A stretch of DNA of 11,003 nt from a virus (Duplodnaviria > Heunggongvirae > Uroviricota > Caudoviricetes): IMG/VR virus record IMGVR_UViG_2698536418_000025; one strand, given 5' to 3'. Below are positions 8,227-11,003 of this stretch, one piece after another. Position 1 is the first letter of the stretch. Each line of letters begins with the position of its first letter. The translations under genes were made by a program, and so were the position numbers. A model generated the notes under the pieces. The model worked only from the letters and a program-made list of their open reading frames with translations, searched no databases and was not told the DNA's origin.

Positions 8227-8383
8227 AGCTTCACCCCCTTGTATCCGTTAAATGATTCGGCAACAATCATCACCCACCACGCGCGTAATCTCACCCCTGC
8301 GCCATTCTCCCGCCACGGCGACAACAAAAAGCAGTAACCCCCTCCGCACGCACATGCGACCATGCCGCACAGGGAGGGAACAG

Positions 8384-9493
8384 ATGACCGACACCACCAT
8401 GCAATTGCTCAGTCAGAGCACAGACCCCGTAAAAATGCCGGATTTTGATATTCTCGCGGAGGGTAAAACGCTGTCCGGCGTGGCGGAGCGCCTGATGAGC
8501 CTGTCGCTGACCGACAACCGGGGATTTGAGGCAGACCAGATCGCCATCACGCTGGATGATGCGGATGGTCAGTTGCAGCTACCGCCACGGGGCGCGCGCC
8601 TGACGGTTCTCATTGGCTGGAAAGGAGAACCGCTGACAGAAAAAGGCACTTACATTGTTGATGAAATTGCTCATGAAGGACCGCCCGACAGGCTGACTGT
8701 TTCAGCCAGAAGCGCAGATTTTCGGGATGAATTTAACGTTAAACGTGAGGTGTCCTGGCATGATGTGACCGTTGAGCGCGTGGTATCCGCCATCGCTCAT
8801 CGGTACGGTCTGAAACCGCAAATCAGCGAAATGCTGATGGATATTGAAATCGACCACGCCGACCAGACCGAAGAAAGCGACATGTCCTTCCTTACACGCA
8901 TGGCGGAAATGCTGGGCGCAATCACCACGGTAAAAAGCGGTAATCTGTTATTCATCATGCCCGGCGGTGGCGTGAATGCACAGGGCCAGCCGTTGCCCTC
9001 GTTCGCCATCACACGCAGCAGCGGCGATCGCCATCAGTTCCGCATTGCTGACCGCGAAGCGTATACGGGGGTACGCGCTTACTGGCTTGATCTTAATTAC
9101 GGGAAAAAGAAAAAAGTCAGCGTGAAACGCCGCAAACCGCCAAAACCCAAAAAGGAGAAAAGCAGCAGCCGTGAAGGTGATTATATGGAAGGTGCGGCAG
9201 GCAATGTGTTTGTGTTACGCAAGACTTACCAGAACGAGCAGGCAGCAAGGCGTGCAGCGGCGGCAAAGTGGCAGCAACTACAACGCGGAGCCGCATCATT
9301 CTCCATCACGCTGGCGCGTGGACGTGCAGAACTCTACCCTGAAATGCATGGCACGGTGACAGGCTTCAAAAGTGACATCGACAATCAGGACTGGATTATT
9401 GCAAAAGCCGAGCACACCATTGATAACAGCGGCTTTACCACGCAGCTTGAGCTTGAAGCCAAAATCCCGGAATGGATAGCGGAAACAGAATGA
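8384..9493 (+). CDS. D: P2 gpD-family tail protein (late control D)
   Basis: The ORF is about 370 aa from the ATG at 8384, which has a strong AGGGAGGG Shine-Dalgarno 5 nt upstream. The track ORF begins in frame at 8252 but that start has no visible SD. Size and position next to ogr fit gpD. Confidence 0.8.
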   Translation: MTDTTMQLLSQSTDPVKMPDFDILAEGKTLSGVAERLMSLSLTDNRGFEADQIAITLDDADGQLQLPPRGARLTVLIGWKGEPLTEKGTYIVDEIAHEGPPDRLTVSARSADFRDEFNVKREVSWHDVTVERVVSAIAHRYGLKPQISEMLMDIEIDHADQTEESDMSFLTRMAEMLGAITTVKSGNLLFIMPGGGVNAQGQPLPSFAITRSSGDRHQFRIADREAYTGVRAYWLDLNYGKKKKVSVKRRKPPKPKKEKSSSREGDYMEGAAGNVFVLRKTYQNEQAARRAAAAKWQQLQRGAASFSITLARGRAELYPEMHGTVTGFKSDIDNQDWIIAKAEHTIDNSGFTTQLELEAKIPEWIAETE

Positions 9494-9581
9494 GCAATTT
9501 AGATGCCCTTACTCAGACCTAAGTCAGTATATTTATTGCGCACACTAAGCTCATTAAGACAATTCACTCTACATTAATTTC

Positions 9582-9609
9582 TTGAACACAACCCAATAAA
9601 CGATAAAAT
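9582..9609 (+). promoter_or_regulatory. Candidate sigma70 promoter for the cargo gene
   Basis: TTGAAC (9582-9587), a 16-bp spacer, then TAAAAT (9604-9609), about 37 bp upstream of the ATG at 9646, in an AT-rich intergenic region. This is a motif match only. Confidence 0.3.
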
Positions 9610-9645
9610 TTTCATGGTATTTCTTCCCCATAATAAGAGAACTGT

Positions 9646-10251
9646 ATGAGCAATAACTGGATATATGTTGGTGCTAATATTAATGATCACCAATGGTCAA
9701 AAGTAGGAAAAACAACTCGCGGTCTGCAGAATAGACATGTCTCATCCCAGAACCCAGGGTTCTTTATTTACACTGCTTATAACATCATAGACGGTGATGT
9801 TCATGAGATTGAGTCTAATCTTTTGGTATATCTTGAGTCTCAACCTGGTGTTAAGCGTATACGTCACCTTAGCACCGGCAGTAAAAGTGAGTGTTTTTCT
9901 GTGCACCCTGAAGAAGTTGCCTGTTTAGTGGAATCATTTATCAATAATCACTATCCCTCATGTGTAACTCACGAGTTTTTATTTGACGGAATAAGCCGCT
10001 ATCAATGCCCTAAAGATTTGTATAACAATTTTAATCGACATCAGAAGCCTGATGAAAAGTTACCATCATGGTGTGAAGAGCCTTCGACACATCTTCCAAA
10101 TAATTTGAATATGTCTTCCGAAAAGTACTTTACAAGTAATCAGGTAGAACATGAAGCCGATTTAGGGAATGGATATTTTGTTGATTACCTCACAGGACTA
10201 CAGGGATATAGGGATGAAGATGGAAACGAAATTTATGATGAACCTAAATAA
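9646..10251 (+). CDS. Hypothetical cargo protein with an N-terminal GIY-YIG-like (T5orf172/MUG113-type) domain and an uncharacterised Cys-containing, acidic C-terminal half
   Basis: The 201-aa ORF has AAGAGA 5 nt upstream of the ATG. Its N-terminus has IYV (aa 6-8), KVGKTTRGLQNR (aa 19-30), HEIE (aa 53-56) and SECF (aa 81-84), arranged like the GIY / (K)IG-T / R / E pattern of T5orf172-type GIY-YIG domains. It is strongly AT-rich and sits between D and ogr. Confidence 0.6.
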   Translation: MSNNWIYVGANINDHQWSKVGKTTRGLQNRHVSSQNPGFFIYTAYNIIDGDVHEIESNLLVYLESQPGVKRIRHLSTGSKSECFSVHPEEVACLVESFINNHYPSCVTHEFLFDGISRYQCPKDLYNNFNRHQKPDEKLPSWCEEPSTHLPNNLNMSSEKYFTSNQVEHEADLGNGYFVDYLTGLQGYRDEDGNEIYDEPK

Positions 10252-10411
10252 GATAACAAATCATTAGATGGTAACTTATTGAATACAATGCATTTTTATA
10301 GTTAATTCTGAAGAGAAAACAATTCCATTTACCATTCAAAGCGGACTAACGGTTGGAGTCTGAGTCAGTACAACTTAGAATAGCGGCAGCATCACGTTAA
10401 GGGAGGTCGCT

Positions 10412-10672
10412 ATGTTCCGTTGTCCGCTTTGTGGCGCATCTGCCCGTATCCGCACCAGTCGTCCGGAAAATGATTCAAACACAGTGCGGCAAAAATATTA
10501 CCAGTGTAACAATCTGGAATGCGGCGTATGCTTCTCAACACTGGAAGCTTTCCATAAATTCACATCGAAACACGCTCCCGGCGTTCACTCTTCAGAGGGC
10601 ATCCCGTGGAATGAGCTGCCAGCTTCGCACAGGGGAAACAACCAGATGAGTTTGCCTTTACCTCAGAATTAA
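10412..10672 (+). CDS. ogr: Ogr/Delta-family zinc-finger late-gene transcriptional activator
   Basis: The 86-aa ORF begins MFRCPLCGASARIRTSR and has a second Cys pair in YYQCNNLECGVCF, giving a C-X2-C...C-X4-C zinc finger as in P2 Ogr. A strong AAGGGAGG Shine-Dalgarno lies 5 nt upstream. Confidence 0.85.
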   Translation: MFRCPLCGASARIRTSRPENDSNTVRQKYYQCNNLECGVCFSTLEAFHKFTSKHAPGVHSSEGIPWNELPASHRGNNQMSLPLPQN

Positions 10673-10732
10673 CAGGCAGAATTGCCGGAGTAACAAAAAA
10701 GCGATAGATTACGCGCGGGTGCCTTTCGGCTG

Positions 10733-10996
10733 ATGGTCGGAGGGAATACCCGAAGGCCAGATGTGGAAAGGCCCCGGAAAACATTTCTGTTTAACCGAGG
10801 CCCTAACCGCATTACCTTGACAAGTGAAAGGTTAGCGCCTCTCCGGAAAAGGAGCAAGTGCTATGTCGCAAAAATCGCTTACGGCCATCACGTTCTGCGT
10901 GACGGCAATCCTCATCATCTGGATGCTGCACGGTTCGCTGTGCGAAATACGGATGAGCTTCTGGGGAGCGGAGTTTGCGGCGTTCTTACAGTGTAA
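10733..10996 (+). CDS. Mok-like overlapping reading frame of the hok locus (start uncertain)
   Basis: The 87-aa ORF is in a different frame from hok, overlaps nearly all of it, and ends 7 nt before the hok stop, the geometry of mok in hok/sok loci. It has no recognisable sequence motif of its own. Confidence 0.3.
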   Translation: MVGGNTRRPDVERPRKTFLFNRGPNRITLTSERLAPLRKRSKCYVAKIAYGHHVLRDGNPHHLDAARFAVRNTDELLGSGVCGVLTV

Positions 10997-11003
10997 GCAG
11001 TAA
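10863..11003 (+). CDS. hok: Hok/Gef-family type I toxin (small membrane peptide)
   Basis: Hand translation gives MSQKSLTAITFCVTAILIIWMLHGSLCEIRMSFWGAEFAAFLQCKQ (46 aa): an N-terminal hydrophobic helix followed by SLCEIR and E-x-AAF motifs matching Hok family toxins (Hok R1 has ...SLCEIRYRDGHREVAAFMA). AAGGAG lies 8 nt upstream of the ATG. Confidence 0.75.
   Translation: MSQKSLTAITFCVTAILIIWMLHGSLCEIRMSFWGAEFAAFLQCKQ

Follow-up and report, generated by a model that had tools for sequence, protein, structure and literature searches.

P2-like phages carry rapidly swapped cargo in small AT-rich loci between conserved phage genes. Two such hotspots are well described, old/tin between gpA and the portal gene and Z/fun (PMC9122126, PMC9519451), and a third has been reported as 'tail protein-CI' (bioRxiv 10.1101/2024.10.15.618418). 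A 2026 survey of thousands of P2 and P4 elements found transposable elements to be almost nonexistent in the hotspots, and left open the mechanism by which defence genes are exchanged with other mobile elements (PMC13586616). Here we analyze an 11,003-nt stretch of viral DNA (IMG/VR record IMGVR_UViG_2698536418_000025; hereafter the window), which is part of a P2-like prophage whose D-ogr region has its closest cultured relatives among P88/Xuanwuvirus-type phages. Between D and ogr it carries an AT-rich insert with one gene for a 201-aa protein. The site resembles the described hotspots in its size, composition and cargo turnover, and differs from them in its position, the D-ogr spacer, and in that its cargo units have transposon ends. 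To judge from its sequence, the insert is very probably a transposase-less cassette derived from an IS481-family insertion sequence (IS), and its passenger gene encodes a divergent GIY-YIG protein of the T5orf172 type, for which a role as a stand-alone anti-phage nuclease is the best-supported reading.

Transposase-less IS derivatives with passenger genes are known as mobile insertion cassettes (MICs), for example the qnrS2 MIC of Aeromonas plasmids (PMC5444012). Like the window cassette, MICs have IS-type terminal repeats and a target duplication around one or a few passengers, and lack a transposase. Another MIC is MIC231 of Bacillus cereus. The window cassette differs from the known MICs in its parent, an IS481-family element (ISSod13-like, with a 7-bp duplication), in its host replicon, a temperate phage, in the presence of at least 11 unrelated passengers at one phage site, and in its right end, which seems to have been co-opted as the -35 box of ogr. 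With ISSod13 and related IS481-family elements it shares 27-bp repeats (TGTATTAGCTCAGACCTGATCTGACAG), a 7-bp duplication and A/T-rich, CTTA-like targets, but it has no transposase gene, its ends are decayed and its size (869 bp) is set by the passenger.

The passenger protein is closest to the T5orf172/MUG113 branch (PF10544, PF13455), which includes homing endonucleases of phage ICP1, the nuclease Odn, and CapR of PLE, an element that resembles phage-inducible chromosomal islands. About 200 of 229 T5orf172 homing endonucleases have CapR, DUF723 or DUF4397 zinc-finger DNA-binding domains (PMC10448857). The window protein is very divergent and falls below every Pfam threshold; unlike the homing endonucleases, Odn and CapR, it has no zinc-finger, CapR, DUF723, DUF4397 or RepA_N domain. 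In their place is a conserved acidic C-terminal module of 43 residues without known relative, and the family occurs in prophages and islands but not in deposited phage genomes. CMoRE (PD-T4-3), a type IV restriction enzyme of E. coli, is a GIY-YIG defence made up of one protein, in which an acidic loop is inhibitory (PMC12923530, PDB 9u75). Autoinhibition by a negatively charged element has been demonstrated for CMoRE, whereas the same role for the tail of the passenger protein is only proposed here, and the passenger protein does not combine a GIYxY-YIG motif with a match to the PD-T4-3 model.

The interval between the D stop at 9493 and the ogr start at 10412 is 918 nt long (9494-10411) and has a G+C content of 36.8%, compared with 54.5% in the flanks of 5 kb on either side; a sliding G+C profile falls from 0.53-0.58 to 0.33-0.38 at the insert. 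Its sole long open reading frame (ORF), at 9646-10251 on the plus strand, is the 201-aa passenger gene (37.6% G+C; RefSeq 'hypothetical protein' WP_000069998.1), and the remaining ORFs, in other frames or on the other strand, encode 20-54 aa. A first-pass annotation of the window had described an AT-rich insertion between D and ogr (mid-30s percent G+C against more than 50% in the flanks) with one 201-aa ORF. All of this was borne out by the composition, the ORF count and the 42-nt D-ogr spacing of related prophages that lack the insert (L016). The limits given there, 9494-10411, turned out to be those of the D-ogr gap and not those of the inserted unit. When occupied and empty sites were aligned, the empty site was TGA-GCA-ACTTAGA-ATAGCGG (junction sequence GAGCAACTTAGAATAGCGG), placing the true edges of the unit at 9504 and 10372 (869 bp), with a 7-bp repeat on each side. 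The left copy, ATTTAGA (9497-9503), and the right copy, ACTTAGA (10373-10379), agree at six of seven positions, and the empty site has a single ACTTAGA. The unit is anchored by conserved backbone. On the left is D (8384-9493, plus strand), a gpD-like tail/late gene of 369 aa (PF05954 Phage_GPD on the product in identical loci), the last 60 nt of which are 96% identical among prophages with different cargo. On the right is ogr (10412-10672, plus strand), the late-gene activator with an Ogr/Delta zinc finger (PF04606, 52 bits), the first 60 nt of which are 98% identical among the same prophages.

Two inverted repeats lie directly inside the heptamers; the first-pass annotation had missed both the repeats and the duplication. 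The decayed left repeat (9504-9530, plus strand; TGCCCTTACTCAGACCTAAGTCAGTAT) matches the ISSod13-like IS481-family consensus at 10 of the 15 outer nt and at 14 of 27 overall, and the decayed right repeat (10346-10372, minus strand; reverse complement TGTACTGACTCAGACTCCAACCGTTAG) at 12 of 15 and 17 of 27. The null expectation for the outer 15 nt is a mean of 3.9 matches, with a probability of about 1e-3 for 10 or more per fixed position. Cassettes at the D-ogr junction of other prophages begin with a common left end (TGTATTAGCTCAGAC...) and finish with its inverted complement (...GTCTGAGCTAGTACA), and nearly every end that was scored has 10-14 of 15 outer nt in common with the IS. The left repeat of the window is positionally homologous to better-kept repeats in these cassettes (12-14 of 15 matches).

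The parent of these ends was identified by searching viral contigs for the end motif of the cassettes. The 27-bp repeats also bound elements of ~1.2 kb with a single ORF for an HTH_29+rve transposase, and BLAST identified these elements as IS481-family members, including ISSod13 of Shewanella oneidensis; the E. coli copies had ~72% identity, and an intact ISSod13-like transposase copy of E. coli is located at 986574-987614 of NZ_CP148401.1. The 17-nt end pattern had 34 matches in IMG/VR, around 10 of which were chance matches within coding sequence. Of five autonomous elements, two come from IMG/VR viral contigs, two from E. coli genomes and one (ISSod13) from the S. oneidensis megaplasmid; they encode transposases of ~346-361 aa and have perfect 7-bp duplications, all five different (ACTTAGA, TCTTAAT, GCTAAAA, TTTAATG and CATAATA). 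Because the heptamers differ among autonomous copies, we take the heptamer to be a target duplication. One autonomous copy (L057) lies in an unrelated context in a target, CAACTTAGAA, that is identical to the D-ogr target over 10 nt, indicating a target preference. Other kinds of end were considered and dropped by eye: Xer/dif-like or lox-like tyrosine-recombinase sites with a 7-bp core, given the variable heptamers; integron attC sites, for their wrong architecture and for the presence of cargo in both orientations; Ogr-binding TGT-N12-ACA sites, which did not fit; and crossover sites of the prophage's Hin/Gin-type invertase, which showed no similarity. Repeats of the Tn3 family (38 bp) were dropped as well: GGAGTCTGA...CACGTTAAG is similar to them but has the wrong length and orientation, and its CACGTTAAG portion is phage backbone.

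The only long ORF of the window cassette is the T5orf172-like gene, and no transposase was found inside it. Among seven cassettes, mean pairwise identity fell from 0.96 in D to 0.59 in the left repeat and 0.29 in the interior, then rose to 0.62 (right repeat), 0.85 (spacer) and 0.98 (ogr). Both repeats also flank a homologue of the passenger gene in Shewanella algae (L012; a 952-bp unit, 14/15 and 13/15), and the left repeat is present beside a homologue in another P2-like phage (L077; 14/15). At the other homologue loci, a de novo inverted-repeat search found repeats in Shewanella only, and a motif scan added the left repeat of L077. The IS481-type terminal repeats and the target duplication explain the arrival of the cargo, and the insert thus exemplifies one way in which phage hotspots can acquire it.

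The first-pass annotation had also proposed to check whether the D-ogr junction is a variable cargo site and whether the gene is a conserved core gene; the first proved to be the case and the second did not. At least 11 unrelated cargo types, the window's included, and many empty sites were found at the junction. Seven other E. coli prophages (L017-L023) have unrelated AT-rich single genes there in either orientation, encoding a DUF2971 protein, a DUF3800 protein, a SEC-C-motif protein (379 aa) and hypothetical proteins of 221, 295, 384 and 487 aa; three IMG/VR contigs (L036, L041 and L051) have a 527-aa protein, a 655-aa protein and a two-gene unit (932 and 106 aa). Most of the alternative cargoes have no known domain. 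The DUF2971 cargo matches the PADLOC candidate PDC-S31, and the only family match of the 527-aa protein was a weak one to PADLOC NsnA (E 9e-5). Of 5,426 complete E. coli genomes, ~1,200 have the flanks and 8 have the exact window insert. The identical protein was in the D-ogr context every time it was found, and the prophage that carries it lies beside ihfA in eight of the nine places shown and beside tamB in one.

The right repeat appears to serve the phage as well. In all eight occupied sites measured, TTGGA(G/A/T) stands exactly 17 nt 5' of a TAGAAT-like hexamer, and this -10-like hexamer before ogr spans the target duplication and the backbone. The 17-nt spacing is preserved in L023 although an indel shifts both hexamers, and GTTGGA is present in the right ends of all three IMG/VR cassettes. 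Neither the autonomous IS copies nor the Shewanella cassette has the TTGGA motif. The right cassette end thus seems to supply the -35 box of a hybrid ogr promoter (10353-10381, plus strand; TTGGAG at 10353-10358, a 17-nt spacer and TAGAAT), which may keep ogr expressed after insertion. Such a promoter would account for the conservation of the right repeat at D-ogr. For the passenger gene, the first-pass annotation had proposed its own promoter, TTGAAC-16-TAAAAT. This sequence is present as a candidate sigma-70 promoter at 9582-9609 (plus strand; 9/12 consensus match), but the region contained three such matches compared with 3.3 expected from shuffles, indicating that the match is not above chance.

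The passenger protein consists of a T5orf172-type GIY-YIG domain (residues 1 to ~104), a conserved extension (105-132), a variable disordered linker (133-158) and a conserved acidic beta-hairpin module (159-201). The motifs WIYVGA, SKVGKTTRGLQNRH, HEIE and SECF, some of which had been quoted in support of a GIY-YIG fold of the T5orf172/MUG113 form, are present in the N-terminal part. The direct profile check that had been suggested was negative: the protein alone had no match at E<=10 in Pfam (including PF10544 and PF13455), PADLOC, PHROGs or NCBIfam. The fold call itself was right, as its relatives revealed. We found 40 homologues in a collection of 5.8 billion sequences. Among the 38 that were aligned, MUG113 was weakly matched by 20 (best E 4.8e-4) and T5orf172 was matched by 12 (best 3.6e-5). 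The family profile retrieves relatives through its positions ~3-108, and 9 of 10 such relatives scanned scored 36-48 bits for T5orf172, where the gathering cutoff is 20. An AlphaFold model made from the alignment was confident over most of residues 1-130, disordered at 133-168 and had four short strands at 170-197, and the alpha/beta fold of the GIY-YIG superfamily was recovered. Foldseek retrieved T5 Orf172 proteins among viral models but found no significant match in the PDB; a profile search of PDB sequences gave a single, spurious match to microplusin (E 0.72).

Ten residues were invariant in the 38 sequences (Y7, K19, G21, T23, R30, H31, E56, H74, E82 and F84). By comparison with I-TevI and UvrC, we take these to include the Tyr of the first hairpin, the second hairpin with the K-x-G-x-T pattern that typifies T5orf172, an Arg/His pair and the metal-binding Glu of the helix that follows beta3; Y7, R30, H31 and E56 presumably map onto I-TevI Y6, R27, H31 and E75. 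Of the residues earlier proposed for mutation, Y7 and E56 are thus invariant, whereas R25 and E54 are variable, the conserved Arg being R30. The matches of homologues and relatives, the model and the invariant residues together support the fold, and we regard a T5orf172-type GIY-YIG domain as almost certain. The active-site set (Y7, K19, R30, H31, E56 and E82) looks intact, which suggests that the protein is a nuclease.

The C-terminal module is as conserved as the nuclease core, with a mean top-residue frequency of 0.71 compared with 0.44 in the linker. Every one of the 38 homologues has an acidic module, with net charges from -2 to -11; that of the window protein has -8 and a pI of 4.05. The C-terminal half had been called unrecognisable, and indeed it matched nothing in Pfam, PADLOC, PHROG, NCBIfam or PDB sequences. 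The protein contains no CxxC pattern, and none of the 38 homologues matched the CapR, DUF723 or DUF4397 models of Pfam. The module does not look like a DNA-binding domain; its strongly acidic character makes DNA binding unlikely. A 1,133-aa protein with 12 matched stretches (P0133) was considered as a repeat relative of the module and discarded as a collagen-like low-complexity protein; it was the tenth of the relatives scanned for T5orf172 and lacks that domain.

The family is small and scattered. Named hosts are all Gammaproteobacteria (E. coli, Serratia, Morganella, Citrobacter, Shewanella, Vibrio and Psychrobacter). In an exhaustive profile search of 1.84 billion proteins the family amounted to 110 clusters (50% identity). 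Six loci were found when 185,579 species were scanned, each represented by one genome, and no homologue was found in 50,697 deposited phage genomes. Distant relatives with 29-31% identity lie on large Klebsiella and Photobacterium plasmids.

Counting the D-ogr site, the gene adjoins defence genes or occupies a phage defence hotspot in ~7 of 10 distinct contexts. The homologue of a Serratia P2-like prophage lies in the gpA-portal (old/tin) hotspot, and that of L077 lies beside the sheath gene and is followed by a Lit homologue, probably the Z/fun position. The family therefore recurs in two, probably three, kinds of P2-like cargo site. In Vibrio mimicus and V. parahaemolyticus the gene is in integrative islands, adjoining Eco57I-like and BsuBI/PstI-type (type II) restriction-modification genes, and in Psychrobacter it adjoins type I restriction-modification genes. 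The Shewanella algae homologue is 1.5 kb from a type VI retron reverse transcriptase, that of a metagenomic contig (L076) is 2.6 kb from Tmn, and that of Citrobacter is near HigBA; the neighbourhoods in Morganella (L001) and L078 were uninformative. Across the homologue loci no conserved partner gene, small ORF or non-coding element was found, apart from shared flanks in four genera: the Morganella, Citrobacter, Serratia and Shewanella copies (L001, L008, L010 and L012) have ~100 nt in common upstream (...ATCGGATTGCTAATTTTGCA...) and ~70-100 nt downstream. This flank sequence is absent from the E. coli copy and may be a regulatory region or a non-coding RNA that travels with the gene.

The homologue neighbourhoods and the intact active site make a stand-alone anti-phage nuclease the best-supported reading of the passenger, although we consider the case for it to be about evenly balanced. 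The non-autonomous cassette (9504-10372) has kept ISSod13-like terminal repeats, with the passenger gene and its upstream region in the place of the transposase, and occupies the 42-nt spacer that separates D from ogr in a P2-like (P88/Xuanwuvirus-like) prophage, at ACTTAGA, which is duplicated on both sides. According to our reading, it would have been mobilised in trans, for which the repeats beside the passenger homologues of L012 and L077 are indirect support. The passenger would be a small stand-alone enzyme, with a T5orf172-type GIY-YIG domain, a disordered linker and an acidic beta-hairpin module, and the lysogen would express it as a single-gene anti-phage (superinfection-exclusion) nuclease. 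By analogy with CMoRE, the acidic tail might restrain the nuclease from acting on host DNA, a block that an infection cue or a particular nucleic-acid substrate would lift. The gene defines a small uncharacterised family in which a catalytically intact-looking T5orf172 domain is joined to a new acidic module, and is a compact candidate for defence screening. The component kinds are already known; here a mobile insertion cassette in a phage carries a member of a divergent T5orf172 family whose acidic module is new. No paper on the protein family, or on IS481-type ends of P2-hotspot cargo, was found in the library of papers searched, an absence that is not proof of novelty.

Several observations weigh against this account. 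The window protein matches no Pfam model by itself, and the defence-model check that had been proposed was also negative, with no family of PADLOC-DB v2 matching at E<=10. With a pI of 6.3 the nuclease domain is not basic, nor can a nucleic-acid-binding module be recognised. The gene is rare, both in E. coli and in the species scan, as could be true of a specialised defence gene or of a weakly selected hitch-hiker. As for the cassette, the window repeats are badly decayed and the heptamers differ by one base, so this copy may no longer be mobile; the majority of the other homologue loci have no repeats, which are not universal to the gene family; and the promoter calls are consensus matches only. 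Finally, all D-ogr cassettes could descend from one ancient IS insertion, the interior of which was later swapped by recombination.

The passenger might also serve a purpose other than defence, as a toxin-like addiction factor that would stabilise the cassette or the prophage, an anti-defence or anti-satellite nuclease for the phage's own lytic cycle (as Odn) or, like CapR, a DNA-binding regulator that has been domesticated. Recruitment of T5orf172 domains has produced both an anti-satellite nuclease and a repressor, the prophage already has a hok/sok addiction module 200 nt downstream, and the cargo of P2 hotspots is not always defensive, since a cytolethal distending toxin and partition systems occur there. 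Nevertheless, the invariant catalytic set speaks against a purely DNA-binding regulator, the absence of a conserved partner or small antitoxin-like ORF beside the homologues speaks against a toxin, and the protein has neither the RepA_N domain of Odn nor another targeting domain. Host-protective systems also dominate the homologue neighbourhoods. We consider a non-defence role improbable.

A single ancient IS481-family insertion raises a different objection, namely that the repeats are its scar, that the cargo has been exchanged by ordinary phage recombination and that the gene is a hitch-hiker without particular function. All D-ogr cassettes do have the same target heptamer, their repeats are decayed, the heptamer copies differ by 1-2 nt within each cassette, and the right ends have a common site-specific GTTGGA change that is absent from autonomous IS copies, as expected of descent in place. 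However, the repeats are far more diverged (~0.6) than the adjoining backbone (0.85-0.98), with a sharp step at the heptamers, and repeats of the same kind accompany passenger homologues in two contexts other than D-ogr (L012 and L077). The L057 copy in the same 10-nt target shows a target preference. In addition, the protein is well conserved along its length in the 38 homologues (46-75% identity), which is unexpected for a functionless gene. We therefore think a mere scar with a functionless passenger unlikely.

It is highly unlikely that the gene is a free-standing homing endonuclease, a selfish T5orf172 nuclease that cuts cassette-less D-ogr sites in mixed infections and is copied in by repair without benefit to host or prophage: among the homing endonucleases predicted in ICP1-like and T5-like phages, T5orf172 genes are the main kind (PMC10448857), a single free-standing ORF does lie between two conserved genes, and the presence/absence polymorphism at D-ogr is real, but the passenger lacks the zinc fingers of most such enzymes, its acidic C-terminal module is unlikely to bind DNA, no deposited phage genome has a homologue, the homologues elsewhere lie in unrelated contexts with no single conserved target gene alongside, and the inverted repeats and 7-bp duplication are common to ten other, non-nuclease D-ogr cargoes. 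Homing is thus not needed to explain the insertion. The arrangement of an N-terminal nuclease, a linker and a small C-terminal module does recall I-TevI-type enzymes.

Returning to the cassette, we tentatively suggest that IS481-derived transposase-less cassettes are a general vehicle by which single-gene and other small anti-phage cargo moves between the chromosomal islands of different genera and particular target sites in P2-like phages, with ISSod13-like transposases acting in trans. D-ogr would be one target, the sheath-proximal or tail-fibre (Z/fun-type) region probably another, and the phage would have co-opted the cassette end into the ogr promoter. If true, this would explain how hotspot cargo is swapped though no transposases have been found there, and the T5orf172/acidic-tail protein would be a new single-gene defence family. 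Since the cassettes have no transposase, searches for transposase genes would miss them, and a repeat-based search could show what share of hotspot turnover is due to them. Separately, a near-perfect solo IS481-type end (26/27) was found at positions 1457-1483 of L059, and also in L032, L034, L043, L052, L055 and L063, between a DUF5677 gene and a tail-fibre assembly gene of other P2-like prophages (a Z/fun-type hotspot); within 10 kb there was no partner repeat.

In gene order, the window has tail-fibre genes and a Hin/Gin-type invertase, followed on the minus strand by gpU, T, E, FII and FI and on the plus strand by D, ogr and hok. The recombinase-family (Hin/Gin/Cin-like) gene at 2025-2624 lies between oppositely oriented tail-fibre and tail-fibre-assembly segments (107-2624), and this arrangement hints at a host-range segment that can invert. 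A hok/sok-type type I toxin-antitoxin locus (10717-11003) follows just downstream of ogr, at the end of the prophage that adjoins the attachment site by ihfA. Its Hok/Gef ORF (10863-11003, 46 aa) matched PF01848 with 29.9 bits, and the sok match (Rfam RF01794, 10717-10876) had 49.4 bits, under the gathering score of 59, with an E-value of 1.4e-9. RefSeq annotates D as a shortened, 266-aa 'VgrG/Pvc8 family' protein with a small antisense pseudogene (window 8252-9493 / L015 19294-20094), whereas alternative gene calls give the 369-aa Phage_GPD protein starting at 8384. In many E. coli O157:H7 genomes (H76-H82), and also in enterotoxigenic E. coli (ETEC) H10407 (H50), related prophages have IS30 in or beside D, indicating that this prophage end is a repeated target of insertion sequences.

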